Shown: positions 2,805 through 23,510 of the stretch, piece by piece | Layout of the letters: each line of letters begins with the position of its first letter | Numbering within the stretch: the first letter of the stretch is position 1 | Sequence record: MT446388.1 | Direction: 5' to 3' (one strand) | DNA length: 64,000 bases | From: Escherichia virus TH10 | Position numbers and translations under genes: made by a program | The notes under the pieces: generated by a model | Seen by the model: only the letters and a program-made list of their open reading frames with translations | What the model was told of the DNA's origin: nothing | The model's database searches: none

Positions 2805-2824
2805 GGGGAGGGAATAACCTTCCC
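2805..2824 (+). promoter_or_regulatory. leader stem-loop, family A
   Basis: GGGGAGG..CCTTCCC hairpin. Confidence 0.5.
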
Positions 2825-2857
2825 ACTAAATAAAGTCCTTAAACTAGGAGATTCAAA

Positions 2858-3106: not shown

Positions 3107-3117
3107 AGTACTTTACA

Positions 3118-3147: not shown

Positions 3148-3191
3148 AGATAAAGAGCTTTACCACTAAATCCTAAACTGGAGATTCAAAA

Positions 3192-3734
3192 ATGAAATGT
3201 TTTCACGGTACTACTCAAGAAAATTTCATCAACCTGATTAATAACGGTGATAAACCATCAGGCGCATGGAATTGTTCGGATATGGATGGCAATTTTTACG
3301 TGTATCCAGAAAATAAAATCTATGGCGACGATGATGAAGAGATAACATCGGAAGGTATTCAGCAAGCTCTAGGCAATGCCACTATTACGGCGGCCTTCCA
3401 GATGAAAACCCAAAATATTGTTATCTTAGAACTCGATATTCCAGAGGATGAGCTAAATGATGATTATTCTTGTGATAATATGTCGAGTGTAGCAAGTTTT
3501 ACAGAGTACTTTGATGTAAATTGGATTAAAAAGGTCTATACAACAGAGTTTAACGCTATGTATTCGCCTTTTTGTCTTCCTTCATTGGATAACCCAAATT
3601 TAAACTATCTTGATGAGTCTCTGGAGCTTCTTGCTAAAAGTGTTCAACAGTCGGACAGTATTCAGGTTTTTTGTGACATCATGGATACACTGACAGGAAA
3701 CATTGCAGAAGAGGATTTAAAGAGCTTTTTCTAA
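3192..3734 (+). CDS. hypothetical strongly acidic protein (180 aa)
   Basis: Asp/Glu-rich translation (DDDEE, EDELNDDY, EEDLKS); early-region location. Confidence 0.6.
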   Translation: MKCFHGTTQENFINLINNGDKPSGAWNCSDMDGNFYVYPENKIYGDDDEEITSEGIQQALGNATITAAFQMKTQNIVILELDIPEDELNDDYSCDNMSSVASFTEYFDVNWIKKVYTTEFNAMYSPFCLPSLDNPNLNYLDESLELLAKSVQQSDSIQVFCDIMDTLTGNIAEEDLKSFF

Positions 3735-11617: not shown

Positions 11618-11903
11618 CGTTAAACTCTCTGACGAAGAAATAGTTGACTTTATTATTACCTACCATAAGGTCAAAGCAGGTATTCTCAAAAGGTTTGTTG
11701 TAGGCATCGTATGAAGTGTACGTATCAGCTACTTGTTTAGTGTTGAGCTTTTTACTTGATGGGTTTAAGAGGCCACCATACAGTTTCTTGATAGCCTCTT
11801 CTACAACAGACCAGATGATTTCGTCAGTAATTTCTTCGTACAGGTCAAGTTCACGCTCTAGTGAGAAGTCACAAATTGGGAAAATAACCTGTACTTTACT
11901 CAT
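11610..11903 (-). CDS. hypothetical protein (97 aa)
   Basis: ORF. Confidence 0.5.
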   Translation of the reverse strand: MSKVQVIFPICDFSLERELDLYEEITDEIIWSVVEEAIKKLYGGLLNPSSKKLNTKQVADTYTSYDAYNKPFENTCFDLMVGNNKVNYFFVREFNDE

Positions 11904-12307
11904 TAACGAATAACCTGTGTTACCTGAATAGCTTCAGTCACTGACAAATCACCAACCTTTTCTTCTTTGATGAAGGTGAAGGTGAGTTCAACAGGCTCTT
12001 GCTCTTCTTGCTCTTCTTGCTCAACCGGAATACCGTTAAGCTCATCAAAGATTGATTGAGTTGTCCAGTCTTCTCCACCATCTGGGTAGTGGATGGCATA
12101 AAGAGGGAACTCTAAATTGTACCAAGCAAAAACAGGGCAACCGTCTGCATCATCTCGGCATCTGTGGAGATATGTGTTTGTACCTTCAAAATGCAAATGG
12201 AGATTACCATTCTTCTCAAAGAGAAGAGCATCTTGAAGGTCTAGTTCCTCATTTTCACTGTAACGGCTGACATCAACTTTAACGTGAATATGGCTGTTAT
12301 TATTCAT
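11903..12307 (-). CDS. hypothetical protein (134 aa)
   Basis: ORF; acidic EQEEQEEQE stretch. Confidence 0.55.
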   Translation of the reverse strand: MNNNSHIHVKVDVSRYSENEELDLQDALLFEKNGNLHLHFEGTNTYLHRCRDDADGCPVFAWYNLEFPLYAIHYPDGGEDWTTQSIFDELNGIPVEQEEQEEQEPVELTFTFIKEEKVGDLSVTEAIQVTQVIR

Positions 12308-12698
12308 AAAAACCTCTCTCTGCTTGTTCGATTTTTGCTCTTAAAGTTTCGCAATGCTGTAAATGGTAGTTAGCTTCTTGTTCATGTGTTGCTAACTGCC
12401 TTTCCAGAACAGTTTTATAGTAACCTGCAAGTTGCTCTTTTGTCAATGGGTGCTCTGAAATAATATCAAGTCCACTTTCACCAAGAGGATTGAATTGTCC
12501 ATGCTCATTGACATTGTAAGTCTCAAACTTGAACATGCCATTGTTCACAGACTCAATAGGTGACAGTTCAACAAGCTCTACAGTAAACCGTGTATACACC
12601 TTGTCGCCTCTTGAAACTACATTGTTTCCAATGATGCGTACAAGTGAACCGTTACGAGTGCACTTAAAAGTTCCAAAGTCACTAGCCCAAAGTTTCAT
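12300..12698 (-). CDS. hypothetical protein (133 aa)
   Basis: ORF track 12300..12773 trimmed to Met preceded by AGGAG RBS, because the longer version would cover the terminator. Confidence 0.55.
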   Translation of the reverse strand: MKLWASDFGTFKCTRNGSLVRIIGNNVVSRGDKVYTRFTVELVELSPIESVNNGMFKFETYNVNEHGQFNPLGESGLDIISEHPLTKEQLAGYYKTVLERQLATHEQEANYHLQHCETLRAKIEQAERGFYE

Positions 12699-12713
12699 AG
12701 TTTTCTCCTTAGA

Positions 12714-12740
12714 AAATAAAAAAAGGCTCCCGAAGGAGCC
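12714..12740 (-). terminator. rho-independent terminator (minus strand)
   Basis: GGCTCC-CGAA-GGAGCC hairpin followed by T-run on minus strand, just downstream of endolysin stop. Confidence 0.65.
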
Positions 12741-12750
12741 TATGAAGATA

Positions 12751-13215
12751 TTACTTTGGATATACACTGTCAAGATAAATGTCAGCTTCCATTCTTCGTC
12801 TATTTTTCAGACCGTTTGAAGTGACCTTCTGACCTTTGACTGTAACCTTGTTCCACCACTGCATAGCTTCTGCACAACCTACCTTATTACCAGCATTGTG
12901 GCGCTTGATAAATGTAGAATCCTGCATAGCTGTAATACCGATGTTGTATGTTTCACTTACAAGAGCATCGAACTCATTCTGAGAAGTAGGAACCTTGATA
13001 GCTTTGTTCACTGCTGCAACAAACTTTTCAACATCTGCAAGAAGATACTGTTCAGCTTGTTCAGCCGTGATTTTCATACCCATCTTAACAGGTTTTCCGT
13101 CAATACGGATTGTACCATACCCGATTGTTGGGATTCCGGCAGAGTCTTCGTAAGCCTCTAACTTCAGACCTTCAAAGAACTTAATAGCTTCTAAACCTTT
13201 TCTTGAGAGTTGCAT
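12751..13215 (-). CDS. endolysin, T4-lysozyme-like muramidase (GH24)
   Basis: N-terminal FEGLKLEAYEDSAGIPTIGYGT matches the T4 lysozyme catalytic Glu/Asp/Thr region. Confidence 0.85.
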   Translation of the reverse strand: MQLSRKGLEAIKFFEGLKLEAYEDSAGIPTIGYGTIRIDGKPVKMGMKITAEQAEQYLLADVEKFVAAVNKAIKVPTSQNEFDALVSETYNIGITAMQDSTFIKRHNAGNKVGCAEAMQWWNKVTVKGQKVTSNGLKNRRRMEADIYLDSVYPK

Positions 13216-14348
13216 TATGCCCCTCCTACTGGACTAACTGTAACTGTTGCAGCGTTAGACGTTACAGAGCCACCTGCACCAGTAACTACACAGGTGTAGC
13301 TTCCTGAATCAGCAGCGGTTGCACCTTCTTTAGTGTAAGTTGCAGCGGTTGCATCAAGGATATCTTCCTCACCTTTCTTCCACTGGTAACCTGTTGCACC
13401 TGTTGCCACAACATTCAGTGTTAAGGTCTCACCTTCATTGATTTCTTGATTGGTTGGCTGTTGAGTGATTACTGGAAGTGCATTCACAGTAACTGTTGCA
13501 GCGTTAGACGTTACAGAGCCACCTGCACCTGTTACAACGCAAGTGTATGAACCAGCATCTGCTGGAAGTGCACCAGATTTGCTATATGTAGCCTTTGTAG
13601 CCGAAGGGATGTCAGAACCATCTTTCTTCCACTGGTAACCAGTTGCACCTGTTGCAGTAACTGCTAAGCTGATGTTTCCACCTTCATTAATAGTCTGGTT
13701 AGAAGGTTGCTTGGTAATCACAGGTAGTGCGTTCACAGTCACTGTTGCTGCATCTGATGTAACACTTGTTCCACCCTCTCCAGATACAACACAAGTGTAT
13801 GAACCAGCGTCAGAAGGTGCTACTGACTGTTTTGTGTAAGTTGCAGAATTGGCACTAGGGATGTCCTCACCATCCTTTTTCCACTGATATCCAGTGGCAT
13901 TAGTTGCTAGAATGCTTAGAGTAAGTGTGCCACCCTCATTGACTGTTTGACCTGTTGGTTGCTGAGTAATCGCTGGTGGCTTAATAGCATCCTTCAACTT
14001 AGCATTCAACATTGAGAACGGCTTAACTCTTGCCAACCATTCACAGTAAATTGTGTCAACATCTTTACCATTGATGATTGCATACTGCAAATCCATGAAG
14101 AAATCAGCAGTTCTCATCTGTGCACCAACACTGTAAAGGAGTTCATTACTAAAAGGAACTTTGTAGTCTGGTTTGTAATCAAACTTCTCAACTTCTGCAA
14201 TATCAGCTTCAGGCCAATATGAGCTATAGGTGAGTGGTAAAATAGCCTCTTGATATGTTCTAAAATCATATCTCTTACCAGCTTTTACGTTTGCAATGAA
14301 GCCCTTCACAAACTCTTTGAAGTCTGGGTAAGTCTTTGCTTTAATCAT
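13215..14348 (-). CDS. protein with three tandem Ig-like domains (377 aa)
   Basis: three repeats of about 82 aa with (Q/K)QP..Q..NEGG.L.L...ATGATGYQWKK.G.DI..A..ATY.K....A.D.GSYTCVV.G.GG; N-terminal 125 aa paralogous to 14345..14716. Confidence 0.75.
   Translation of the reverse strand: MIKAKTYPDFKEFVKGFIANVKAGKRYDFRTYQEAILPLTYSSYWPEADIAEVEKFDYKPDYKVPFSNELLYSVGAQMRTADFFMDLQYAIINGKDVDTIYCEWLARVKPFSMLNAKLKDAIKPPAITQQPTGQTVNEGGTLTLSILATNATGYQWKKDGEDIPSANSATYTKQSVAPSDAGSYTCVVSGEGGTSVTSDAATVTVNALPVITKQPSNQTINEGGNISLAVTATGATGYQWKKDGSDIPSATKATYSKSGALPADAGSYTCVVTGAGGSVTSNAATVTVNALPVITQQPTNQEINEGETLTLNVVATGATGYQWKKGEEDILDATAATYTKEGATAADSGSYTCVVTGAGGSVTSNAATVTVSPVGGA
13240..13985. repeat. three tandem DNA repeats of about 246 bp
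   Basis: near-identical blocks, e.g. ACTGTTGCAGCGTTAGACGTTACAGAGCCACCTGCACC at about 13245 and 13493; encode the Ig-like repeats. Confidence 0.7.
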
Positions 14349-14716
14349 TTCTTTTTAGCCTCTAAATGTGCGTTTAGTCTAAAATAACCTTTGTGGTGTG
14401 GAGATACATCACCAACAACAATACCTTTAACCTTATAACCTTTACCAATTACATACTGGATATCCATAAGGAATCTACCAAGACCAACAATATGGAACAT
14501 TGGATATAATAGATTCTCAGAATCTGGAATATTGATTTCAGGTTTGTAGGTGCGTTGTTCGCTTGTTGGTGTAATATCTTCTTCAGGCCATTTACTGAGT
14601 CTCCATGTCAAAGGTGTTGGGATAACATCATTAAGATTGTACCTCTCACCATTTTTCACGGAATTGATGTAGGATTGTAGGAAGCAATAAAAGTCTTTTG
14701 CACTCTTAGCCTTCAT
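14345..14716 (-). CDS. hypothetical protein, paralog of the N-domain of the Ig-repeat protein (123 aa)
   Basis: shared motifs (KDF..F...I..VK.G.RY, EADI/EEDI, YKP, F.MDLQY.I.GK). Confidence 0.6.
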   Translation of the reverse strand: MKAKSAKDFYCFLQSYINSVKNGERYNLNDVIPTPLTWRLSKWPEEDITPTSEQRTYKPEINIPDSENLLYPMFHIVGLGRFLMDIQYVIGKGYKVKGIVVGDVSPHHKGYFRLNAHLEAKKK

Positions 14717-14763
14717 TAAATATCCTTATAAACAGATAAAGGGGCACTAGCCCCTATTTACAC

Positions 14764-15354
14764 TTAAGCTTTAGTCTTAAGTAGGTTCTTAAGCTTTTTG
14801 AGATTCATACTCTCGTCAAACTTAAAACCAAATCCATTGACGTAATCAATGAACTCGGATTTTTTACTAAGTGATAGCGCATAATCCATATCAAAGCTGT
14901 TACTTGTTTCTGCGTCTGGACTAGAGTTCACATCAAATGAAATTTCTGTAGGCTCTTGCTTATTCTTTCTCATATTATCAACCAATAAGCAGGTATAGTT
15001 TGCTGGATAGAAGTTAACACTACCATCAACATAGCTATACTTATTATTGTGAATAAGATTGGAAAATACCTTAAAGAATGTTTCTGAGTCGTGGCACACA
15101 AGTTTGAATTGACTGCTCTCTCCAAGAGCAACTAATGAGTACGGACTTTCACTATCAAAGTCATAGTTTGGATTCGATGCCGTCACTGTTACACGCATCA
15201 AATTGTTAGCAATTGTCTTTTGCTTAAAAGAGTTTTGAACATAGAAAAGACCTCTACCACACTGGTTAACTAACTCTTTAAGTAGGTCATTTGCATATGG
15301 TGAATTAATTGATACAGAACCATCACTATTGTAATTAAAACTTACTGTTAACAT
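14764..15354 (-). CDS. hypothetical protein (196 aa)
   Basis: ORF. Confidence 0.55.
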   Translation of the reverse strand: MLTVSFNYNSDGSVSINSPYANDLLKELVNQCGRGLFYVQNSFKQKTIANNLMRVTVTASNPNYDFDSESPYSLVALGESSQFKLVCHDSETFFKVFSNLIHNNKYSYVDGSVNFYPANYTCLLVDNMRKNKQEPTEISFDVNSSPDAETSNSFDMDYALSLSKKSEFIDYVNGFGFKFDESMNLKKLKNLLKTKA

Positions 15355-15581
15355 TTTTCAGTTCTCCTGCGATTTATAATTTTGCTGCAATAGAGAAACG
15401 AAGTAAACTCACTGGAAGAAACCATTAAGTGTTGTTCACTAGATTGAGCCATTGCCCTGAAATACATTCCAGTCAAAGCATCATAGTGACTATTCTTTCC
15501 AATTGAGGTTATATAGCCATGACTCTTTGCAGTTTGGTATAAATCAATAATATCTGCGATTTCTAATTGGGAACTACACAT
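15348..15581 (-). CDS. hypothetical protein (77 aa)
   Basis: ORF. Confidence 0.45.
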   Translation of the reverse strand: MCSSQLEIADIIDLYQTAKSHGYITSIGKNSHYDALTGMYFRAMAQSSEQHLMVSSSEFTSFLYCSKIINRRRTEKC

Positions 15582-16426: not shown

Positions 16427-17842
16427 ATGAGCGAATTATTTAAACATGCGCACCTTCATGCAGGTCGAACTGAAAATGGTGCTGTAAACCATACTTCATC
16501 AATGTCTGCTCTTGTAGACTTTTACAAAGCTGCTGGTTCTAGCCGTAGCAATGTAGAAATCTTACCAGACTTGTTCTACAAAGCTTTGCATGAGGATGTT
16601 GATGTTGCAGTTCGTATTTTACTGCATATGCGAGATGTACGAGAAGGTATGGGTGAGCGTAAAGCTTTCCGAACTGTTTTACTTCAAGCAATTGAAGATA
16701 AGATTTTAGAGCCTACACAGGTTCTTCGCATTATGGATAAGATTGCAGAGCTTGGTCGTTTTGATGACTTCAAAATCTTCGTCGGTACTCGTTTCGAAAC
16801 AGATGCCTTCAAACATTTAGAAGCTGCATTACTAGACCCTGCAACAGCAGGTTTGGCAGCCAAGTGGTTACCACGAGTCAAACCACGCCATAAGCATTTT
16901 GTAAAACGTTTCTGCAAGTTTGCAAACTTAAGTGAGAAAGAGTACCGCACACTGTTGTCTGCACTATCTGATACAGTTGAGCAAAAAATCTCTGCTAATG
17001 AGTTTGGTAAGATTGACTACAGTAAGATTCCTTCACTTGCTGCTGCACGTTACCAAAAACTGTTTAACCGTAAAGATGGAGAGCGCTACAAAGCTTACAT
17101 CGAGTCATTATCAAAGGGTGAGGCTAAGATTAATGCTGGTGCTGTTTACCCATACGATGTGATTAAATCTGTTAAGTATGGTAATGCAGATGTTGCTAAT
17201 GAGCAGTGGAAAGCACTACCAAACTGGATGGCAGAGGGTGAAAACATTCTATGTATGTCTGATGTTTCAAGTTCAATGTCTTGGGTGAATTTTGGCTCAA
17301 TTACTGCCCTTGATATTGGTGTATCACTTGCCTTGTATGTAGCAGAACGCAATACAGGTTGCTTTAAGAACGAGTTAATGGTTTATTCAACAAACCCTCA
17401 TTTCATCGAACTGAGTGGCGATTTAAAGAACCGTCACCGTCAGGTAATGCGACATGTTGAATACGGTTCAACTAACTTACAAGCAGCTTTTGACCGCATC
17501 CTTGAGACAGGTAAGAGAAACAACTTGACTCAGAAAGATATGCCAAGTAAGCTTATCATCTTCTCTGATATGGAGTTCAATCAGGTTGACGGTGCAAATG
17601 GTCGTACAAACTTTGAAGCAATTCAGAGTAAGTACAAAAAAGCTGGATATGAGATGCCACAACTGGTATTCTGGTACTTAGCAAACCGTAATGGTACTTG
17701 CGAAGTATCTGTTAAGGATAACGGTGTAGCAATGGTATCTGGTTTCTCTCCAGCCACTTTAAAAGCTCTGCTTGGTGGTGAGAAGTTTGACCCAATCAGT
17801 GTAATGCTCAAAGCAGTAATGATTGACCGTTATATCTGGTAA
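16427..17842 (+). CDS. vWA-domain protein with Ro60 (TROVE+vWA)-like architecture (471 aa)
   Basis: C-terminal MIDAS motif D-V-S-S-S (LCMSDVSSSMSW) and later FSDME typical of vWA; about 270-aa helical N-terminal domain; sits immediately 5' of the tRNA/Y-RNA-like array. Confidence 0.6.
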   Translation: MSELFKHAHLHAGRTENGAVNHTSSMSALVDFYKAAGSSRSNVEILPDLFYKALHEDVDVAVRILLHMRDVREGMGERKAFRTVLLQAIEDKILEPTQVLRIMDKIAELGRFDDFKIFVGTRFETDAFKHLEAALLDPATAGLAAKWLPRVKPRHKHFVKRFCKFANLSEKEYRTLLSALSDTVEQKISANEFGKIDYSKIPSLAAARYQKLFNRKDGERYKAYIESLSKGEAKINAGAVYPYDVIKSVKYGNADVANEQWKALPNWMAEGENILCMSDVSSSMSWVNFGSITALDIGVSLALYVAERNTGCFKNELMVYSTNPHFIELSGDLKNRHRQVMRHVEYGSTNLQAAFDRILETGKRNNLTQKDMPSKLIIFSDMEFNQVDGANGRTNFEAIQSKYKKAGYEMPQLVFWYLANRNGTCEVSVKDNGVAMVSGFSPATLKALLGGEKFDPISVMLKAVMIDRYIW

Positions 17843-18007: not shown

Positions 18008-18084
18008 CTCTGTTTAGCTCAGCTTGGTAGAGCGTTCCGTTTGGGGCGGTAAGGCCGGAGGTTCAAGTCCTCCAACAGAGACCA
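18008..18084 (+). tRNA. tRNA-Pro (UGG)
   Basis: 7-bp acceptor CTCTGTT/AACAGAG, T-arm GGAGG-TTCAAGT-CCTCC, loop ttTGGgg, encoded CCA. Confidence 0.75.
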
Positions 18085-18091
18085 AATTAAT

Positions 18092-18169
18092 GTTCCAGTA
18101 GACAAAATGGTAAAGTCACCACTCTTTCAAAGTGGATATCTGAGGGTTCAAATCCCTTCTGGAACGCCA
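18092..18169 (+). tRNA. tRNA-Glu (UUC)
   Basis: acceptor GTTCCAG/CTGGAAC, anticodon stem CCACT/AGTGG, loop ctTTCaa, CCA. Confidence 0.8.
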
Positions 18170-18176
18170 GTTTTGA

Positions 18177-18248
18177 CAGAAGACCAATTACAGCAAACTT
18201 AATCTACTCATCTGAAAGTTAATCGGACAAAGAAGATATTTGGTCTGG
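18177..18248 (+). ncRNA. structured element 1 (CAGAAGACC..GGTCTGG helix)
   Basis: 5' CAGAAGACCAA pairs with 3' TTGGTCTGG; no ORF; one of 4 copies with compensatory changes. Confidence 0.4.
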
Positions 18249-18259
18249 TCATTAAGAAT

Positions 18260-18336
18260 TGCGGGTATAGAGAAAGGGCGTCTCACATGTCTCATTAGCA
18301 TGGTATCGGCAGGTTCGACTCCTGCACCCGCCTCCA
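18260..18336 (+). tRNA. tRNA with CAU anticodon (Met or Ile2), atypical
   Basis: T-arm GCAGG-TTCGACT-CCTGC, acceptor with 1-72 mismatch, loop ctCATta, CCA; irregular D arm and 6-nt variable region. Confidence 0.55.
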
Positions 18337-18342
18337 ATTTTG

Positions 18343-18401
18343 CAGAAGACCGTATTCAGCAACAAAATACTTTTTGCGGATAAAAGAAAAACACGGTCTG
18401 G
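18343..18401 (+). ncRNA. structured element 2 (CAGAAGACC..GGTCTGG helix)
   Basis: 5' CAGAAGACCGT pairs with 3' ACGGTCTGG. Confidence 0.4.
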
Positions 18402-18412
18402 CAATGTATTAA

Positions 18413-18489
18413 GGTTAGGAAGCACATAAGGTATGTGCGGTCGCCTGTTAAGCGAATGGCACAGGGTTCGAATCCCTGACTAACCGCCA
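18413..18489 (+). tRNA. tRNA-Asn (GUU)
   Basis: T-arm CAGGG-TTCGAAT-CCCTG, D-stem GCAC/GTGC, loop ctGTTaa, CCA. Confidence 0.75.
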
Positions 18490-18497
18490 AATTAAAT

Positions 18498-18585
18498 GTG
18501 TCGTTATCCCGTAGATGGTAGCGGTGGGGACTGTAAATCCCTTGTCATTGAGACTCGGTAGGTTCGACTCCTACACGGCACACCA
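18498..18585 (+). tRNA. tRNA-Tyr (GUA), type II
   Basis: acceptor GTGTCGT/ACGGCAC, anticodon stem GGGGA/TCCCT, loop ctGTAaa, long variable arm, T-arm GTAGG-TTCGACT-CCTAC, CCA. Confidence 0.8.
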
Positions 18586-18590
18586 ATAAA

Positions 18591-18667
18591 GGCTATGTAG
18601 TTTAACTGGAGAAAATACTCCCCTGTCACGGGAGATGATGTGAGTTCAAGTCTCATCGTAGCCGCCA
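18591..18667 (+). tRNA. tRNA-Asp (GUC)
   Basis: acceptor GGCTATG/CGTAGCC, anticodon stem CTCCC/GGGAG, loop ctGTCac, CCA. Confidence 0.8.
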
Positions 18668-18728
18668 ATTTTGAGAGGGCTATTTAGCCCCTCCCTTAAA
18701 GAGTTCTTACGAGTATTCTTTAAAGGAG

Positions 18729-18804
18729 CAGAAGACCAAATACAGCAAGAACGTATGAAAATTTCAAGCCAATTTAATTTTGAAAAATTTAAAACTTGGT
18801 CTGG
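18729..18804 (+). ncRNA. structured element 3 (CAGAAGACC..GGTCTGG helix)
   Basis: 5' CAGAAGACCAA pairs with 3' TTGGTCTGG; interior A/T-rich. Confidence 0.4.
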
Positions 18805-18817
18805 CTCAACAAATTTA

Positions 18818-18948
18818 CAGAAGACCGTTTACAGCAAAACTTAAACAATCTATTTCTCGGTAAAGAAAAGGCGAAGGTTCGATTCCTTCACTCGGCAGAT
18901 GTCGAGTTGGTGTAATGGTAGCACTTAAGATGATAAACAACGGTCTGG
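18818..18948 (+). ncRNA. candidate Y-RNA-like RNA: permuted tRNA-like module closed by terminal helix
   Basis: order is helix strand (CAGAAGACCGTT), T-arm (GAAGG-TTCGATT-CCTTC), acceptor 3' strand ACTCGGC, 4-nt loop, acceptor 5' strand GTCGAGT (7 bp incl. one G-U), D-arm GTG-TAATGGTAG-CAC, helix strand (AACGGTCTGG). Confidence 0.5.
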
Positions 18949-19097
18949 TAATTGTCTTTGTAGATAAGTTATTAAGCTTACCTGTGAGTATGCGACCACA
19001 AAGGGTGAAAGGGTAAATTCTAGATTTAAACCCAAAAAGGCACATCGCTACAGACCTTAAGCAAGTCTGGGTAGCTTATCTACAAAGATAATTTAAT

Positions 19098-19173
19098 GGA
19101 AGTGTAGCAGAATGGTGATGCGGCAGACTTTTAATCTGACAGGCGATGGGTTCGAATCCCTCCACTTCTACCA
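19098..19173 (+). tRNA. tRNA-Lys (UUU)
   Basis: acceptor GGAAGTG/CACTTCT, anticodon stem CAGA/TCTG, loop ctTTTaa, GGGTTCGAATCCC T-arm, CCA. Confidence 0.7.
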
Positions 19174-19251
19174 AATTCACCCTTAACTGAGAAACACCTG
19201 CGCGGCTGGAAACACCCACTCAACAGTTTCTCTAACTAGGGTACTTATTCT

Positions 19252-19328
19252 GGTTCAGTCGCAGATAAGGTAATGCAAGGGTCTCATAAGCCCTATGAAT
19301 GTGGGTTCGATTCCCATCTGAACCTCCA
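19252..19328 (+). tRNA. tRNA with CAU anticodon (Met/Ile2)
   Basis: acceptor GGTTCAG/CTGAACC, anticodon stem AGGGT/GCCCT, loop ctCATaa, T-arm GTGGG-TTCGATT-CCCAT, CCA. Confidence 0.7.
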
Positions 19329-19329
19329 A

Positions 19330-19405
19330 GCTGGTATAGTTAAGAAGGTTATAACACTCCCCTGATAAGGGAACATCGGTGGTTCGATTCCACCTACCAG
19401 TACCA
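19330..19405 (+). tRNA. tRNA-Ile (GAU)
   Basis: acceptor GCTGGTA/TACCAGT, loop ctGATaa, T-arm GGTGG-TTCGATT-CCACC, CCA. Confidence 0.75.
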
Positions 19406-19420
19406 ATTTCAATAAAGTTG

Positions 19421-19449
19421 TTGACATTGAGATGTGACAGCTTTATAGT
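19421..19449 (+). promoter_or_regulatory. sigma70-like promoter (TTGACA-17-TATAGT)
   Basis: consensus hexamers inside tRNA array; followed by about 200 nt ORF-free transcript before tRNA-Arg. Confidence 0.55.
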
Positions 19450-19652
19450 AACCTTAGTTTTCGTTGCGTAGCGTCTATTTTGCAAATTTAAAATAAATGC
19501 AAACGACAATGTTTTTCTGGCAGTAGCTTGATAGGCTAAACACCAGTGAGGTCTTCCAACCCCTCATCAAAGAATTTGGCGTACTAGCCCACGGTATGAT
19601 TAATAAGGTGGGCATCTTTAAGGGCTTTCTCAGAGAGTCTTTAAAGATTAAT

Positions 19653-19729
19653 GCACCCTTAGTTCAATTGGATAGAGCAACGGTCTTCTAAATCGTTAGT
19701 TACAGGTTCGAATCCTGTAGGGTGTGCCA
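19653..19729 (+). tRNA. tRNA-Arg (UCU)
   Basis: acceptor GCACCCT/AGGGTGT, D-arm AGTTCAATTGGATAGAGC, loop ctTCTaa, T-arm ACAGG-TTCGAAT-CCTGT, CCA. Confidence 0.8.
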
Positions 19730-19877
19730 AATAGTTAGCAGATTGCTTAGACGACCTTATCGGGTCTCCGTGTAAGGAGGTGGTCTGTATCTCATGTTTT
19801 CCAGAACATGTAAATAATCTGAGAAGGGGCTTTACAGTGTTGAGATAATACGGTAAGCTTCGAATTATAGTTTTAAT

Positions 19878-19948
19878 AGGGGTGAGCTATGGCAGCAATA
19901 GAGTCTCCAAAATTCTTGATTAGAGTTCGAATCTCTACACCCCTGCCA
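19878..19948 (+). tRNA. tRNA-Trp (CCA), short
   Basis: perfect acceptor AGGGGTG/CACCCCT, T-arm TAGAG-TTCGAAT-CTCTA, loop ctCCAaa, CCA. Confidence 0.65.
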
Positions 19949-19962
19949 GAACAGGTGCTTGT

Positions 19963-20367
19963 ATGAAACTTTGTAGAAAATGTTCTCAAGAAAAGCCTTT
20001 AAGCTGCTTTCATAAAAGAGGTAATGGCTATCAGTCTGCTTGCAAAGATTGTAAAGCTAAGTACTCAGCAAAGAGATACAAAGAAGACCCTACTTATAAA
20101 GCAAAAAGAAAAGTTAGGGCAAAATATGACAAAAAGAGGAACAGAGAGTTCCTTAGTAGATATAAAAAGTTTTGCAAATGCAGAATATGTGGCGAATCTG
20201 AGCCAGTAGCTTTGGATTTTCATCACTTAGACCCTAAAGAGAAAGATTTTGCTCCAAGCAATCTTAAAACTTACTCTAGGGGCACTATTAAGCGTGAAGT
20301 CCGTAAGTGTGTTGTGCTTTGTTCAAACTGTCATAGGAAAGTTCATGCAGGACTGTTAAGTATTTAA
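19963..20367 (+). CDS. HNH endonuclease (134 aa)
   Basis: Cys-rich zinc-binding N-terminus; HNH motif DFHHLDP..N..VVLCSNCHRKVH; embedded in tRNA array. Confidence 0.8.
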   Translation: MKLCRKCSQEKPLSCFHKRGNGYQSACKDCKAKYSAKRYKEDPTYKAKRKVRAKYDKKRNREFLSRYKKFCKCRICGESEPVALDFHHLDPKEKDFAPSNLKTYSRGTIKREVRKCVVLCSNCHRKVHAGLLSI

Positions 20368-20380
20368 CAGTCTTATTAGG

Positions 20381-20468
20381 GGTAGGTAGCGGCTAATGGC
20401 AGCCAAACAGTCTTGAAAACTGTTGCCACTGTAGAGATACGGTGAGGGTTCGACTCCTTTACTTACCG
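20381..20468 (+). tRNA. tRNA-Ser (UGA), type II
   Basis: acceptor GGTAGGT/ACTTACC, anticodon stem ACAGT/ACTGT, loop ctTGAaa, long variable arm, T-loop TTCGACT; CCA not encoded. Confidence 0.75.
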
Positions 20469-20626
20469 CCTAATAAGATTTAAAGCCAAGCTTCATTCGG
20501 ATGTTGCTTTGGTATCCCTCGTGTATTGTCGTACACGCACAGTAAAACACCTAGTAGGTGTCACGGAGAAGAGATAATATCAAGCTCTCCAAAGGTTCTA
20601 GTCACCGGATTAAACAAGACTATGCA

Positions 20627-20647
20627 AAGACCTTTTTAGGTCTTTTT
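20627..20647 (+). terminator. terminator-like hairpin inside tRNA array
   Basis: AAGACC-TTTTTA-GGTCTT followed by TTTA. Confidence 0.35.
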
Positions 20648-20726
20648 AGAGGGCTTCTAAGGTTATTACAGCTTGTTGTGGAACCTTGTTGCTTAGGTTC
20701 TTAGAAGTTCTCTAAAAAGGTTTAAT

Positions 20727-20804
20727 GGGAGATTGACGGTAATTGGTAAACCTACCATCCTTAGAAGTTGGTGTTTGAGGGTTCGAATCCCTTGTCTCCT
20801 ACCA
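20727..20804 (+). tRNA. tRNA, anticodon UAG (Leu-like), short variable arm
   Basis: acceptor GGGAGAT/GTCTCCT, T-arm GAGGG-TTCGAAT-CCCTT, loop ctTAGaa, CCA; lacks type II arm. Confidence 0.6.
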
Positions 20805-20811
20805 AATTAAT

Positions 20812-20887
20812 GCAGGTGTAGCAAAATGGTTATGCGGCTGACTCTTAATCAGTAAGACGATGGGTTCAATTCCCTCCACCTGTACCA
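20812..20887 (+). tRNA. tRNA-Lys (CUU)
   Basis: acceptor GCAGGTG/CACCTGT, anticodon stem GCTGA/TCAGT, loop ctCTTaa, GGGTTCAATTCCC T-arm, CCA. Confidence 0.7.
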
Positions 20888-20893
20888 AACAAT

Positions 20894-20969
20894 GGGGATG
20901 TAGTTTACATGGTTAAAACATAAGTTTTGCAAACTTAAGTACAGGGTTCAATTCCCTGCTTCTCCACCA
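20894..20969 (+). tRNA. tRNA-Ala (UGC)
   Basis: acceptor with G3:U70 pair (Ala identity element), anticodon stem TAAGT/ACTTA, loop ttTGCaa, T-arm CAGGG-TTCAATT-CCCTG, CCA. Confidence 0.8.
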
Positions 20970-20975
20970 ATTAGT

Positions 20976-21050
20976 GCATCCATAGTTTAAACGGGAAAAT
21001 TACAGTCTTCCAAACTGAGGTTGAGGGTTCGATTCCCTCTGGATGCTCCA
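20976..21050 (+). tRNA. tRNA-Gly (UCC)
   Basis: perfect acceptor GCATCCA/TGGATGC, loop ctTCCaa, T-arm GAGGG-TTCGATT-CCCTC, CCA. Confidence 0.75.
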
Positions 21051-21056
21051 AACAAT

Positions 21057-21133
21057 GCTGCTTTCGTATAATTGGCTATTACACATCCCTTGTAAGGATG
21101 GAAATGCAGGTTCGAGTCCTGTGAGCAGCACCA
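21057..21133 (+). tRNA. tRNA-Thr (UGU)
   Basis: acceptor GCTGCTT/GAGCAGC, anticodon stem CATCC/GGATG, loop ctTGTaa, T-loop TTCGAGT, CCA. Confidence 0.8.
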
Positions 21134-21137
21134 ATTC

Positions 21138-21226
21138 AGAGGTCAAGTGAAAGACCGCTTTGAGTCAACTGAAGACCGTAACAAATTCCACGGAGTTGAG
21201 TTAGCGGCACAACTCCAGACCTCTTT
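21138..21226 (+). ncRNA. structured ORF-free element (nested inverted repeats)
   Basis: outer AGAGGTC..GACCTCT and inner GGAGTTG..CAACTCC inverted repeats; contains GAAGACCG motif. Confidence 0.35.
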
Positions 21227-21229
21227 CAT

Positions 21230-21304
21230 ACTCGCTTAGTTTATATGGTAAAACACCACCCTTACAAGATGAAGAAAAAGGTTCAAGTCCTTTAGTGAGT
21301 ACCA
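21230..21304 (+). tRNA. tRNA, isotype uncertain (possibly Val UAC)
   Basis: acceptor ACTCGCT/AGTGAGT, T-arm AAAGG-TTCAAGT-CCTTT, CCA; anticodon stem poorly paired. Confidence 0.55.
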
Positions 21305-21305
21305 T

Positions 21306-21383
21306 GTTCCAGTATCCCAATTGGCAGAGGATGCAAGCTCAAACCTTGTACTAGTGACGGTTCGAATCCGTCTTGGAACACCA
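21306..21383 (+). tRNA. tRNA, anticodon CAA (Leu-like), short variable arm
   Basis: acceptor GTTCCAG/TTGGAAC, anticodon stem GCAAG/CTTGT, loop ctCAAac, T-arm GACGG-TTCGAAT-CCGTC, CCA. Confidence 0.6.
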
Positions 21384-21399
21384 ATTTTAGGAGAACACT

Positions 21400-21507
21400 A
21401 TGAGTAATAAGTCAATTGCAAAAAAGTTTATAGCGTCATTCAAAAACAGACGTAAAAACAACTCTTGTGAAAAACTGTATGGTGTTCTTGTAGGTAAGCA
21501 GGATTAG
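21400..21507 (+). CDS. possible small basic ORF (35 aa)
   Basis: AGGAG RBS 7 nt upstream of ATG; not in ORF track (<60 aa); 3' end overlaps next tRNA by 10 nt. Confidence 0.3.
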   Translation: MSNKSIAKKFIASFKNRRKNNSCEKLYGVLVGKQD

Positions 21508-21573
21508 TTCAAATGGATAGAGCAACAGTCTACGAAGCTGTTAATAGGGGTTCGAATCCCTTATCCTGCACCA
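21498..21573 (+). tRNA. tRNA-Arg (ACG)
   Basis: perfect acceptor GCAGGAT/ATCCTGC, D-arm AGTTCAAATGGATAGAGC, loop ctACGaa, T-loop TTCGAAT, CCA. Confidence 0.8.
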
Positions 21574-21592
21574 ATTTAAAGAGGCTATTTAG

Positions 21593-22150
21593 ATGAGATA
21601 TTTGAAGTATGCTTCATGGATTTTCTTAGCTTTGTTAGAACCATTTGCAGCAACCCTAGCAGTCATCTTAGCACCTTTTGTAGTTCCATTCTACAGTGAG
21701 AAGAAAGGACACTTACCTTTCGGGTTCAGATGGATGGAGACATATGACAACCCAATTGATGGTGATGAAGGTCACGTTAAAAGATGGGCTAATATTAGAT
21801 GGATTGGTAAACTAGGCGTCTACATGCAAAGAGTCGGATGGCTCTGGAGAAACAAAGCTTATAACTTCTCTTACCATGTATTAGGAAGAGATGTAAAAGA
21901 TGTTACTAAGTGGAAAGGTAATATCAACGTAAGTTCTGACCCTGAAGATAATCAGACTGGTTATCTCCTAATGTGGAACAGTAATGCTTGGGGATTATTC
22001 GCCTTTATCCCATCAATTAAAGTCTTTGGTAAACAGTTTTACTGGAGAATTTATATTGGATGGAAACTAAAAAGTGTTGTCCCAGAAGAAAGAGCATTCT
22101 CAAGGGAAAGAGTTATGTTGGCATTCTTTATTCATCCACTGAGAAAGTAA
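21593..22150 (+). CDS. hypothetical membrane protein (185 aa)
   Basis: AAGAGG RBS; hydrophobic N-terminal segment; Trp-rich; embedded in tRNA array. Confidence 0.6.
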   Translation: MRYLKYASWIFLALLEPFAATLAVILAPFVVPFYSEKKGHLPFGFRWMETYDNPIDGDEGHVKRWANIRWIGKLGVYMQRVGWLWRNKAYNFSYHVLGRDVKDVTKWKGNINVSSDPEDNQTGYLLMWNSNAWGLFAFIPSIKVFGKQFYWRIYIGWKLKSVVPEERAFSRERVMLAFFIHPLRK

Positions 22151-22158
22151 AGATTTAA

Positions 22159-22234
22159 AGGGGATTAGTTTACAAGGTTAAAACCTCGGTCTTTGAAATC
22201 GAAGAAGTTGGTTCAATTCCAACATCCCCCGCCA
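22159..22234 (+). tRNA. tRNA-Gln (UUG)
   Basis: acceptor AGGGGAT/ATCCCCC (1-72 mismatch), anticodon stem TCGGT/ATCGA, loop ctTTGaa, T-arm GTTGG-TTCAATT-CCAAC, CCA. Confidence 0.7.
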
Positions 22235-22236
22235 AT

Positions 22237-22315
22237 GCTCCATTACTCCAATTGGCAGAGAGGCCAGACTTAAAATCTGTGTTATGTATCGGTTCGAATC
22301 CGATATGGAGTACCA
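22237..22315 (+). tRNA. tRNA, anticodon UAA (Leu-like), atypical variable region
   Basis: acceptor GCTCCAT/ATGGAGT, T-arm ATCGG-TTCGAAT-CCGAT, loop ctTAAaa, CCA. Confidence 0.55.
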
Positions 22316-22320
22316 AATTT

Positions 22321-22396
22321 AGCGGTATAGCATAACTGGCAATGCAGCAGTCTCTGAAGCTGTCCTATTAAGGTTCAAATCCTTATGCCGCTGCCA
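22321..22396 (+). tRNA. tRNA-Gln (CUG)
   Basis: acceptor AGCGGTA/TGCCGCT, anticodon stem GCAGT/GCTGT, loop ctCTGaa, T-arm TAAGG-TTCAAAT-CCTTA, CCA. Confidence 0.7.
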
Positions 22397-22427
22397 CTTC
22401 TAAGGATTCTTACGAGAGTCCTTAAAT

Positions 22428-22503
22428 GTGGCCTTATCATAAATGGTAATGACCCATGCTGTGAACATGGTCTATACGGGTTCAAATCCCGTAGGTCACC
22501 CCA
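22428..22503 (+). tRNA. tRNA-His (GUG)
   Basis: acceptor GTGGCCT/AGGTCAC, anticodon stem CCATG/CATGG, loop ctGTGaa, discriminator C, CCA. Confidence 0.8.
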
Positions 22504-22508
22504 ATTTA

Positions 22509-22585
22509 TAGTCCAAGTAGCTTATATGGTTAAAGCGCGTGTCTGAAAAACATGAGAAGAGGGTTCAAATCCCACTGGACTACCA
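22509..22585 (+). tRNA. tRNA-Phe (GAA)
   Basis: acceptor TAGTCCA/TGGACTA, anticodon stem CGTGT/ACATG, loop ctGAAaa, T-loop TTCAAAT. Confidence 0.7.
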
Positions 22586-22601
22586 ATTTCAAAGGTGCTT
22601 A

Positions 22602-23336
22602 ATGAAAGAGATGACAGAACAAGGTAAGGAGATTTTTAATCTCTTAAAAACTGGTAAAGGGTTTTCTAATCCCCTTATTACTGGTGCAGCAGTTCTCAGT
22701 GGAACCGTAGCTGCCTCTACATCACTTGTAAGCTCTATTAGCTCTGTAACAGACCCAACAATAAAAGATAAACTTGTTGCTGCTGGACTTACAACAGTTC
22801 TGCTTAACAGCTTTACAACGAGCCTGACAAGCACTACATCAACTACCAAAACACTGACAGATTACGGTCAAAAGTCCATTGATGAGTTTTCATCACGTAT
22901 GCAGGTAGCAAAAGGTTATTCTAATGTTATGGGTGCAGCAGGTGAACAAGTTGGCTGTACACCATTTAGTGGTATTATGGGTGTTGCTACAGAGTATGGT
23001 CAAAAAGCTATTGATACGATTAACAGTGCACTAGACGGTGTTAATGATGTATTAAGTGACTTACAAGACGCTATTGACAAAGGTCTTGATACTATTTCTG
23101 ATTTAGCTAACCAAGCTGTTAGTAAGATTAATGAAGGTATTTCGAAGATTACAGCTTATGCAGATGAAGTTGTGCAGATGATTGAAGAAGAAGCTGCCCT
23201 TATTGCAGAGTACCTTAGAACGAATATCAATGGGTTCTTAGCAGGTATCTTACCAGACTGGTTTGATGATGCTTGTAAAACTGGTGTAATTGATACTATT
23301 GCAACACCAGAAATGAAGAACGCATTACAGAAATAA
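22602..23336 (+). CDS. hypothetical Ser/Thr-rich protein (244 aa)
   Basis: ORF track 22539..23336 starts at GTG inside tRNA-Phe; trimmed to first ATG (MKEMTEQ). Confidence 0.6.
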   Translation: MKEMTEQGKEIFNLLKTGKGFSNPLITGAAVLSGTVAASTSLVSSISSVTDPTIKDKLVAAGLTTVLLNSFTTSLTSTTSTTKTLTDYGQKSIDEFSSRMQVAKGYSNVMGAAGEQVGCTPFSGIMGVATEYGQKAIDTINSALDGVNDVLSDLQDAIDKGLDTISDLANQAVSKINEGISKITAYADEVVQMIEEEAALIAEYLRTNINGFLAGILPDWFDDACKTGVIDTIATPEMKNALQK

Positions 23337-23337
23337 T

Positions 23338-23430
23338 GGAAGATTAACCCTAAAAGGTAAGGGAGCAGTTTGCTAAACTGCCAGTAGCTGAGAAATCGGT
23401 GTACCAGTTCAAGTCTGGTATCTTCCTCCA
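23338..23430 (+). tRNA. tRNA-Ser (GCU), type II
   Basis: perfect acceptor GGAAGAT/ATCTTCC, anticodon stem GCAGT/ACTGC, loop ttGCTaa, long variable arm, T-arm ACCAG-TTCAAGT-CTGGT, CCA. Confidence 0.8.
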
Positions 23431-23434
23431 ATTC

Positions 23435-23510
23435 GAATCCGTGACAGAAATGGCTATGTGCCTGTCTGCAAAACAGGTTTATAAGGGTTCAAGTCCCTTC
23501 GGATTCTCCA
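23435..23510 (+). tRNA. tRNA-Cys (GCA)
   Basis: perfect acceptor GAATCCG/CGGATTC, anticodon stem CCTGT/ACAGG, loop ctGCAaa, T-arm AAGGG-TTCAAGT-CCCTT, CCA. Confidence 0.8.

Follow-up and report, generated by a model that had tools for sequence, protein, structure and literature searches.

A Hoc-like capsid decoration protein and a stand-alone copy of its capsid-binding domain upstream of the endolysin in a Felix O1-like phage

The locus and its genes

The window is a stretch of 64,000 nucleotides from Escherichia virus TH10 (MT446388.1). Its source phage is a Felixounavirus, that is, a Felix O1-like myophage, and the DNA of the region treated here is about 94% identical to VpaE1_ev78, AYO145A, and other Felixounavirus records. 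Three minus-strand open reading frames (123, 377, and 154 aa) follow one another, with exactly the boundaries assigned to them in an earlier sequence-only reading (Table 1). The first encodes a stand-alone paralogue of a capsid-binding domain (CapBD), the second the decoration protein Hex-Dec, and the third a T4-lysozyme-type endolysin, for which the PF00959 match spans profile positions 2-125 of 125 and the translation has the Glu-8-Asp-5-Thr catalytic spacing (E15, D24, T30).

Table 1. Features of the decoration and lysis gene cluster in the window.
Feature	Position	Strand	Basis or remark
Terminator-like hairpin upstream of the paralogue	14740..14755	-	GGGGCTAGTGCCCC plus an interrupted T tract
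Stand-alone CapBD paralogue, 123 aa (Felix O1 gp37, Sf14 gp21, Bas63 g125)	14345..14716	-	BLASTP, phmmer, AF2 model
Hex-Dec (Hoc-like hexamer-centre capsid decoration protein), 377 aa	13215..14348	-	phmmer against PDB, and gene order
N-terminal CapBD of Hex-Dec	13977..14348	-	Aligns to the residues modelled in the 9ncf_S and 9c2d_S maps; Arg79 and Arg107 present
Ig domain 1, aa 125-208	13725..13976	-	Pfam Ig_3/I-set
Ig domain 2, aa 209-291	13476..13724	-	Pfam; absent from 2-Ig relatives, e.g. phage tootiki
Ig domain 3, aa 292-374	13227..13475	-	Its orthologue in relatives is their last Ig domain
GH24 (T4-lysozyme-type) endolysin, 154 aa	12751..13215	-	PF00959 E=9e-41; phrog_7 endolysin E=4.5e-58; start overlaps the Hex-Dec stop
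Strong intrinsic terminator just past the endolysin	12724..12741	-	AGGCTCC-TTCG-GGAGCCT-TTTTTTATTT; annotated in AYO145A

The junctions between the three genes are tight. The paralogue overlaps Hex-Dec by an ATGA at 14348-14345, and Hex-Dec overlaps the start of the endolysin, as had been claimed, by a TAATG at 13217-13213, with a GGAGG Shine-Dalgarno sequence at 13226-13222. The hairpin upstream of the paralogue coincides with an annotated rho-independent terminator in AYO145A and is also found in Table 2 of the Felix O1 genome paper (PMC3185647). Thus, the 3 genes constitute a tightly coupled unit between 2 terminator-like hairpins, which agrees with the operon originally proposed, and a search for a sigma-70-type promoter between the upstream hairpin and the paralogue start codon found none. 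The same gene order is found in Bas63 (where g124 is Hex-Dec) and Sf14 (gp20). Adjacency of Hex-Dec and the endolysin extends further, to REP11, LNA1, and Kolesnikvirus phiEa104 in addition to Sf14 and Bas63, and thereby to 3 Ounavirinae genera (Felixounavirus, Mooglevirus, and Kolesnikvirus). In phiEa104, a terminator-like hairpin lies between the Hex-Dec and lysin genes, and adjacency is therefore no proof of co-transcription. A match that began at query position 487 had suggested that the endolysin might be replaced in LNA1 and AN17P8; this idea was dropped, since LNA1 carries the same endolysin and the split is an artefact of its 4-Ig gene.

Transcription data are available for Felix O1, where, by RT-PCR, ORFs 36 and 37 reach their peak with the structural genes at 60 min and the lysin (ORF 35) falls at 25 min (PMC3185647). 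These times fit poorly with one simple transcript, and the assay is a crude one, since the major capsid gene is placed early in the same table. The location of a head protein gene outside the structural module is probably explained by Hex-Dec and the endolysin both being needed late.

A decoration protein of capsid hexamers

Against the PDB, the 377-aa protein matched 9ncf_S, the Bas63 Hex-Dec, with E=2.7e-269 (aa 1-347 with residues 1-347) and 9c2d_S, the Sf14 gp20, with E=7.2e-170 (aa 1-371 with residues 1-370) by phmmer. By sequence, then, Bas63 Hex-Dec (PDB 9NCF chain S) and Sf14 gp20 (PDB 9C2D chain S) are orthologues of the predicted product, which has the homologous CapBD, the arginines at positions 79 and 107, and the C-terminal string of Ig domains that mark the Ounavirinae Hex-Dec/Sf14 gp20 type. 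Both orthologues consist of an N-terminal CapBD followed by Ig domains, and both occupy hexamer centres at the facet edges only (PMC11821841, PMC12609058). In Sf14, Asp221 of the major capsid protein is paired in salt bridges with Arg79 and Arg107 of gp20 (PMC11821841), and these two anchoring arginines are invariant in all 12 Hex-Dec sequences aligned, the window protein included. Mass spectrometry has detected Sf14 gp20 in virions (PMC11821841) and Felix O1 Gp36 in CsCl-purified virions at 44% coverage (PMC3185647). Capsid location, monomeric binding, anchoring residues, and virion presence are thus known from the orthologues, and as these are 84-98% identical to the window protein in the CapBD, capsid binding may be expected of it too.

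The databases offer a different label. Most related records annotate this gene as "tail protein," "putative tail protein," or "major tail protein," the protein matches phrog_3995 ("tail protein") with E=7e-210, and there is a likeness between its Ig region and the Ig domains that siphophage major tail proteins carry (phrog_158, phrog_853). However, these tail-like matches do not extend beyond the Ig region, a mobile domain, whereas cryo-EM puts the CapBD in the capsid hexamers of 2 phages (9NCF and 9C2D are capsid reconstructions) and not in a tail; moreover, the Bas63 paper explicitly calls the "tail protein" annotation wrong (PMC12609058). We consider a tail protein extremely improbable, and the annotation, a common error, is corrected here for the window.

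A second possibility is a non-structural Ig protein of a lysis or middle-gene operon, derived from a recent triplication. The gene does lie among small minus-strand genes of unknown function, with over 10 kb between it and the structural module, and it adjoins the endolysin gene, to which it is translationally coupled. But the orthologues are virion proteins by both mass spectrometry and cryo-EM, ORFs 36 and 37 of Felix O1 peak late with the structural genes, and the triplication is old (see below), so that this reading is very improbable as well. From the unusual setting, the sequence-only reading had implied that here an Ig protein might be found off the virion; in fact, the orthologues sit on the capsid surface (cryo-EM, 9NCF and 9C2D) and in the virion (Felix O1 Gp36, Sf14 gp20), and the apparent anomaly disappears, since the virion surface is where such a protein is expected. 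Nor is the odd genomic position a new observation, as it is stated in the Bas63 paper (PMC12609058) and was noted in the 2010 Felix O1 genome paper (PMC3185647).

As a capsid decoration protein, Hex-Dec of the window would work as follows. The helical N-terminal CapBD of about 120 aa would insert as a monomer into hexamer centres, the targets being the 60 pentamer-adjacent (quasi-3-fold) hexamers of a T=9 head, and would be held in place by the salt bridges of Arg79 and Arg107 to Asp221 of the major capsid protein. The 3 I-set-type Ig domains would then project outward as a flexible, acidic fibre. The most likely use of such a fibre, by analogy with what has been proposed for T4 Hoc, would be to adhere weakly and reversibly to polymers of the cell surface or the environment. 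In a PhageMaP screen, Bas63 g124 scored as more essential on one host, E. coli S17-1, than on 3 others (PMC11482910).

Age and copy number of the Ig domains

The 3 Ig-like domains that had been read from the sequence are confirmed by Pfam, in which Ig_3 (E=1.6e-32), Ig_2 (E=1.9e-26), and I-set (E=9.4e-26) each match 3 stretches of the protein. Ig1, Ig2, and Ig3 are 84, 83, and 83 aa long, each has the GSYTCVV motif, and the DNA encoding them has a period of 249/252 nt. The further statement that these DNA repeats are still highly similar did not hold. Tandem Repeats Finder, run on 12000-15500, did not report the array of roughly 250-nt repeats even at score 30, because the repeats are too diverged, and their identity was therefore measured directly: pairwise, it is 66-70% for DNA and 66-72% for protein. 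A repeat search returned only patches of 71-83% identity, and the single long identical stretch, of 41 nt, is common to Ig2 and Ig3.

Comparison with other phages dates the duplication. Identity to positional orthologues is 88-100% for every Ig domain, as against only 66-72% to siblings within the protein. Specifically, Ig1 is 100% identical to Ig1 of AYO145A and of tootiki and 90% identical to Ig1 of Bas63; Ig2 is 92-93% identical to Ig2 of Bas63 and AYO145A; and Ig3 is 95% identical to the second of 2 Ig domains in tootiki, 92% to the last of 4 in Bas63, and 88% to Ig3 of AYO145A. The duplication is therefore older than the divergence of these phages, and of the earlier alternatives, recent duplication or ongoing recombination, the first fails. 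Recombination between repeats, on the other hand, is borne out by REP11, which carries an Ig1/Ig2 chimera. The repeat-number comparison in related phages that had been proposed gave 1, 2, 3, or 4 Ig domains; the tootiki gene, for instance, is 885 nt long and made of Ig1 and Ig3. For an estimate of copy number, the extent of the matches was taken in 60 records chosen to be well spread. Searches for homologous proteins returned close relatives only, mostly 210-aa one-Ig forms, and were of little use for a census. Variation of this decoration protein between 1 and 4 Ig domains has been published already. Taken together, the alignments indicate that the 3 Ig domains are old paralogues, whose copy number shifts by whole-domain loss and gain through recombination between repeats.

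The stand-alone capsid-binding domain

The claim that the upstream gene is a paralogue of the Hex-Dec N terminus proved correct. By BLASTP, its product is 39% identical to Hex-Dec aa 2-100 over 101 aa (E=2e-17), and a full-length alignment of the 2 domains has 23 invariant columns. Its sole PDB matches by phmmer are 9ncf_S (E=3.5e-12) and 9c2d_S, through residues 3-117. The same 2 chains are the only Foldseek matches of its AlphaFold2 model (TM 0.67-0.70 over 118 columns; nothing else at E<1), a model of moderate confidence (pLDDT 68.8, pTM 0.70) made from a 27-row alignment; a model from the single sequence was unusable (pLDDT 45). In sequence and predicted fold, the protein is thus homologous to the CapBD along its whole length. 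What it lacks are the anchors: the equivalents of Arg79 and Arg107 are Gly and His/Gln, respectively, in 15 of 15 paralogues aligned, although the divergent paralogue P0099 may carry an Arg near position 107, and the missing-arginine test is therefore weaker for that second site.

Could this gene be a duplicate in decay that has no separate function? It is decayed or missing in about 19 of 252 records, including the natural isolate REP11, it is absent in Kolesnikvirus, and no phenotype has been reported for it. However, the full-length ORF is intact in 232 of the 252 records, spread over Felixounavirus, Mooglevirus, and Suspvirus, and its dN/dS of 0.03-0.20, at dS up to about 0.95, signifies purifying selection. 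The columns held in common with Hex-Dec and the transcription in Felix O1 also speak against decay, which we judge improbable. (Loss of the REP11 paralogue by unequal crossing-over with Hex-Dec was considered and rejected; the REP11 CapBD is purely of the Hex-Dec type, and a decayed paralogue remnant lies upstream of it.) The paralogue is thus a functional, late-transcribed, stand-alone CapBD without either of the anchoring arginines.

Whether it resides in the capsid is a separate question. As a minor capsid protein, it might be an Ig-less plug of the 20 true-3-fold hexamers or a competitor of Hex-Dec that sets fibre density. It matches the CapBD in fold and length, its transcription in Felix O1 is late, like that of Hex-Dec, and its pI of 9.3 is above the 7.7 of the CapBD, which makes it the more basic of the two; the hexamer centre, for its part, is lined with Asp. 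The Sf14 authors explain by a different geometry of Asp221 why gp20 stays out of the 3-fold hexamers (PMC11821841), a geometry that the differing contact residues of a paralogue could in principle match, and icosahedral averaging would smear a monomer on a true 3-fold axis. Against this, gp37 is absent from the Felix O1 virion proteome list (PMC3185647), the paralogue is not among the listed virion proteins of Sf14 (PMC11821841), no density was seen at the other hexamers of Bas63 (PMC12609058), both arginines are replaced, and the gene is dispensed with in the records noted above and in Kolesnikvirus. The evidence for absence from virions consists of one 2010 proteome, with a coverage cut-off of at least 25%, and of symmetrised maps, both of which may have missed a low-copy 14-kDa protein. 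On balance, residence in the capsid seems unlikely, and most likely the paralogue is not a stable virion component.

The preferred reading is that of an accessory late protein, which may act, for example, in head assembly or in controlling the loading of Hex-Dec. More speculatively, and with rather little credence on our part, the paralogue could be an unrecognised partner in the decoration system, either as an Ig-less plug of the 3-fold hexamers, overlooked in symmetrised maps and older proteomes, or as a non-virion protein, made late, whose transient contact with hexamer centres or Hex-Dec would determine the number of fibres per head. We found no mention of the paralogue, or usable data on it, in the Sf14, Bas63, PhageMaP, wV8, VpaE1, UAB_Phi87, and Sf14 tRNA papers.

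What the locus adds

As a whole, the account that we hold very probable combines a Hex-Dec that forms a capsid fibre, a three-gene unit, old Ig paralogues, and an accessory late paralogue. Much of this is not new. Hex-Dec of the window is the already known, structurally solved head-decoration protein of Felix O1-like phages, and everything concerning its fibres as scaffolds or determinants of retention is in the 2025 literature; the small anchor-only duplicate upstream is the one part without discussion in print. What the present analysis establishes for the window is orthology, domain architecture, conservation of the anchoring residues, and synteny. The additions are modest and fourfold: first, domain-by-domain orthology, which makes the Ig triplication old and the copy number a matter of whole-domain deletion, insertion, and chimera formation; second, an anchor domain that has exchanged the domain it displays (see below); third, the retention of Hex-Dec-endolysin adjacency in 3 Ounavirinae genera; and, fourth, an upstream paralogue without the published capsid-contact arginines, yet under purifying selection. 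Fibres of the Hex-Dec type have a practical appeal: they are attractive scaffolds for display and, in Felix O1-like phages used for therapy, they might determine how well the phage is retained by surfaces or mucus.

Comparison with known decoration systems

The closest systems are Bas63 Hex-Dec (PDB 9NCF chain S; bas63_0124) and Sf14 gp20 (PDB 9C2D/9C3A chain S), which are alike in full-length orthology, in the CapBD with Arg79/Arg107, in the string of I-set-type Ig domains, and in gene order. The sole difference is Ig copy number, with 3 in the window and Sf14 and 4 in Bas63, whose third Ig domain the window protein lacks.

T4 Hoc is similar in organisation and conduct: it is a monomer at hexamer centres with Ig-like domains strung outward from a small domain that binds the capsid, it is dispensable, its Ig number varies among relatives, and a role in adhesion or sensing of the environment has been proposed for it. 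PHROG families named for Hoc-like head decoration match the Ig region of the window protein, but these matches start at about aa 120 and leave aa 1-119 uncovered. Moreover, the capsid-binding domain is C-terminal in Hoc and N-terminal in the window protein; the CapBD of Hex-Dec exceeds that of Hoc in size, has a different topology and pseudo-C2 symmetry, and is only minimally similar to it in sequence (PMC12609058); and Hex-Dec decorates only a subset of hexamers. Hex-Dec of the window would work like Hoc, but its anchor is not a Hoc homologue, and it does not belong to the T4 Hoc family sensu stricto.

For the T5 decoration protein pb10 (PDB 5LXK, 8ZVI), the likeness lies in its Ig domain, which matches window aa 132-207 (E~3e-12); pb10 differs in having one such domain, and similarity in the capsid-binding part was not detected, the match being confined to the Ig region. 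In contrast, gp038 of Kolesnikvirus (Erwinia phage phiEa104 / phiEa21-4) has a homologous CapBD (profile E=5.6e-11 for the representative P0101), and its gene likewise lies directly upstream of the endolysin, but there one Big_2 domain takes the place of the I-set domains, and the stand-alone paralogue is absent, with one CapBD match per genome. The CapBD anchor is a small, subfamily-restricted module on which the displayed domain has been swapped, be it I-set, Big_2, Big-like, or a Lys/Ser-rich tail.

Identity and setting of the Ig protein

The product of 13215-14348 (Hex-Dec), with a capsid-binding domain (CapBD) at its N-terminus and then three Ig domains, belongs to the Hex-Dec / gp20 family of capsid proteins. 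A PDB sequence search with the 377-aa protein returned two near-full-length orthologues, 9ncf_S of phage Bas63 ("Immunoglobulin-like domain protein", E=2.7e-269) and 9c2d_S / 9c3a of Shigella phage Sf14 ("putative tail protein", E=7.2e-170), and both 9ncf_S and 9c2d_S are chains of icosahedral capsid reconstructions. Sf14 gp20, detected in particles by mass spectrometry, sits in the T=9 head at the pentamer-proximal (quasi-3-fold) hexamers only, in their centre; a helical bundle made of its first 118 aa is anchored through Arg79 and Arg107 to the major capsid protein's Asp221 (PMC11821841). Bas63 Hex-Dec is located likewise, the CapBD at its N-terminus has pseudo-C2 lobes, and the map did not resolve its four predicted Ig domains; its gene is more than 10 kb away from the structural module, the Ig number ranges from one to four across Felixounavirus, and most genomes of that genus wrongly annotate a tail protein (PMC12609058). 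The two-Ig orthologue Felix O1 Gp36 (31.6 kDa) was recovered in 2010 from CsCl-purified virions at 44% coverage, in a paper which remarked that the "tail protein" gene is well away from the morphogenesis genes (PMC3185647). Both arginines are present in the window protein and in 12 of 12 aligned Hex-Dec sequences, and every testable defining feature of the family is found. The sequence-only reading had regarded an Ig protein in this operon as unusual; with Ig-like repeats, and with orthologues on the capsid by cryo-EM and in virions by mass spectrometry, the conditions it set for its own refutation speak for an ordinary virion-surface Ig protein.

Phage records matching 12300-15400 number 251, and almost all belong to Felixounavirus and relatives that infect Escherichia, Salmonella, Shigella, and Citrobacter. 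Identity reaches about 94% in the best nucleotide matches (VpaE1_ev78, LF110P2, and AYO145A), and AYO145A, tootiki, Sf14, REP11, Bas63, and LNA1 share the gene order. The three ORFs proposed from the sequence were all recovered on the minus strand, the last being indeed a T4-lysozyme-like endolysin (PF00959, E=9e-41) with the E15/D24/T30 motif readable in its translation. Paralogue and Hex-Dec overlap in an ATGA (14348-14345) and Hex-Dec and lysozyme in a TAATG (13217-13213), so that the Ig gene does overlap the endolysin start, and the lysozyme Shine-Dalgarno, GGAGG, sits within the 3′ end of the Ig gene. Terminator-like hairpins border the unit, with none inside it, and the stretch from the upstream hairpin to the first start codon yielded no promoter.

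Adjacency to the endolysin is kept in Felixounavirus, Mooglevirus, and the more distant Kolesnikvirus phiEa104, where the homologue (2501-3115 of that locus; CapBD plus one Big_2 domain, no I-set) is directly upstream of lyz (3165-3638) and a terminator-like hairpin (GGGACTCTTCGGAGTCC+T5) lies between them. By RT-PCR in Felix O1, ORFs 36 and 37 peak at 60 min, in the same class as the structural genes, and the lysin (ORF 35) peaks at 25 min. Most simply read, the genes would form a small late unit within the leftward-transcribed arm. Since the RT-PCR is crude, no promoter was found, and phiEa104 has its hairpin, co-transcription of Hex-Dec with the endolysin is only plausible.

Among the neighbouring features, a large tRNA gene cluster is expected in Felix O1-like phages; the 471-aa ORF beside it, with homologues annotated as DUF2828 (pfam11443) in Sf14 and "RNA-binding protein" in REP11, may merit a look. 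Several GenBank records call homologues of the 134-aa ORF "D-alanyl-D-alanine carboxypeptidase" (e.g., tootiki_63), an annotation that looks unsupported because the ORF has no Pfam match at E<=0.1 and a PHROG match of the unknown-function class only. For the ORF at 12300-12773, the PHROG match is restricted to aa 26-157 and annotated homologues begin at an ATG (MKLWASDFG...), which moves the true start to about 12698, beyond the downstream terminator. The sigma-70-like promoter followed immediately by that terminator is an odd arrangement.

Features of the locus and its surroundings
Feature	Coordinates	Strand	Details
Anchor-only paralogue	14345-14716	-	123 aa
Hex-Dec	13215-14348	-	377 aa
Ig1	13725-13976		aa 125-208; GSYTCVV; 100% AYO145A Ig1, 100% tootiki Ig1, 90% Bas63 Ig1
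Ig2	13476-13724		aa 209-291; GSYTCVV; 93% AYO145A Ig2, 92% Bas63 Ig2
Ig3	13227-13475		aa 292-374; GSYTCVV; 95% tootiki last domain, 92% Bas63 Ig4, 88% AYO145A Ig3
Endolysin	12751-13215	-	154 aa; GH24 phage lysozyme
Terminator-like hairpin	14755-14740		upstream edge of three-gene unit
Terminator-like hairpin	12741-12724		downstream edge of three-gene unit
Sigma-70-like promoter	12773-12745		TTGACA-17-TATCTT; upstream of 12741-12724 terminator
ORF	12300-12773	-	mechanical start TTG, within endolysin 3′ end
134-aa ORF	11903-12307	-	
471-aa ORF	16427-17842	+	between divergent promoter region and tRNA cluster
27-tRNA gene cluster	18008-23510	+	about 3 kb past divergent promoter region adjoining the Ig/endolysin locus

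Age and number of the Ig domains

Pfam confirms three tandem Ig-like domains carrying GSYTCVV (Ig_3, E=1.6e-32; Ig_2, 1.9e-26; I-set, 9.4e-26; three stretches apiece). Each has one Cys only, in YTCVV, and hence no canonical B-F disulfide. Outside phages, the Ig region (13227-13976) finds its best solved match in GhpA (9flp_A, E=4.9e-80, 17 stretches), a grappling-hook protein from the predatory bacterium Aureispira.

The sequence-only observation is real except for the high similarity claimed for the DNA repeats, and its interpretation was partly right. Pairwise identity is 66-70% in DNA and 66-72% in protein, Tandem Repeats Finder did not report the ~250-nt array even at score 30, and the single long identical run, common to Ig2 and Ig3, is 41 nt. 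Recent duplication fares no better. Compared domain by domain with Hex-Dec of AYO145A, tootiki, REP11, Bas63, Sf14, and four one-Ig metagenomic forms, each window domain is 88-100% identical to its positional orthologues and 66-72% to its siblings, and therefore the triplication is older than the divergence of the compared phages; it is not recent, nor are the repeats undergoing homogenisation.

Ongoing recombination between repeats, the other suggestion, does find support, and had already been reported in the Sf14 and Bas63 papers. The first Ig domain of REP11 is an Ig1/Ig2 chimera with its crossover, read from aligned sequences, in the conserved GYQWKKDG stretch, and tootiki retains Ig1 and Ig3, with the middle domain missing. 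The 461-aa Hex-Dec of vB_EcoM_LNA1 (LNA1; 1486-2871 of its locus, minus strand) has four Ig domains; in both it and Bas63 the third domain is an addition, and not the same one in each, so four-Ig forms are not unique to Bas63 and have multiple origins or different insertions. One-Ig forms are many, metagenomic and isolate. Relatives thus cover one-, two-, three-, and four-Ig forms, and, judged by match spans in 60 records picked across the set of 255, ~19 fit three domains, ~21 two, and ~9 one.

An anchor-only paralogue

The Ig feature being known already, with its structure solved, what interest remains lies in the upstream gene, which is unmentioned in either structure paper (Sf14, PMC11821841; Bas63, PMC12609058). 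Its suspected paralogy with the Hex-Dec N-terminal ~120 aa is upheld (BLASTP, 39% identity over 101 aa, E=2e-17): the alignment runs end to end, and the paralogue ends exactly where Ig1 begins. The 123-aa protein has no Pfam match, and its only PDB matches, over residues 3-117, are the CapBD of 9ncf_S (E=3.5e-12) and 9c2d_S (E=1.5e-11). Its AlphaFold2 model (27-row alignment; pLDDT 68.8, pTM 0.70) retrieved only the same two chains with Foldseek (TM 0.67-0.70 over 118 columns; next E>1).

The paralogue is a real, functional gene, as seen from its full-length presence in 232 of 252 records (Felixounavirus, Mooglevirus, and Suspvirus), a dN/dS of 0.03-0.20 with dS up to ~0.95, and late transcription in Felix O1 (ORF 37, RT-PCR). 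A functionless duplicate accordingly ranks last among the readings, even with the evidence from REP11, where a decayed remnant (~2340-2497 of the locus; start codon lost, large internal deletion, 5′ and 3′ ends recognisable) stands upstream of an intact two-Ig Hex-Dec, so that at least some isolates can do without the paralogue. Nor is it, probably, a Hex-Dec-type capsid plug: in all 15 of 15 paralogues Gly and His/Gln stand where Hex-Dec has Arg79 and Arg107, Felix O1 gp37 is missing from the virion protein list (PMC3185647), Bas63 has no density on other hexamers (PMC12609058), an intact copy is absent in ~19 of 252 records, and no stand-alone copy was found in Kolesnikvirus. It is also more basic than CapBD (pI 9.3 vs 7.7). 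We rank first a late accessory, non-virion protein; a minor capsid protein that was missed, with the CapBD-like fold on its side and the virion list against it, comes second.

The anchor family and comparison with Hoc and pb10

A CapBD and paralogue profile run against 1.84 billion representative proteins found 12 clusters only. Of the remote members, which keep the anchor, P0101 and P0102 have a C-terminal Big_2, P0103 an I-set, and P0104 a Big-like domain; the metagenomic P0105 (153 aa, profile E=9.4e-5) has a Lys/Ser-rich C-terminal tail, probably disordered, and no Ig domain. The Big_2 forms come from a different genus of Ounavirinae. By these profile matches the anchor is a narrow module, on which the displayed domain can be exchanged. 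Like T4 Hoc and T5 pb10, Hex-Dec is a monomer at hexamer centres that displays Ig domains. Unlike in Hoc, however, the domain order is reversed and the anchor topology distinct, and PHROG Hoc-like matches are confined to the Ig region; the Hex-Dec anchor is not homologous to Hoc.
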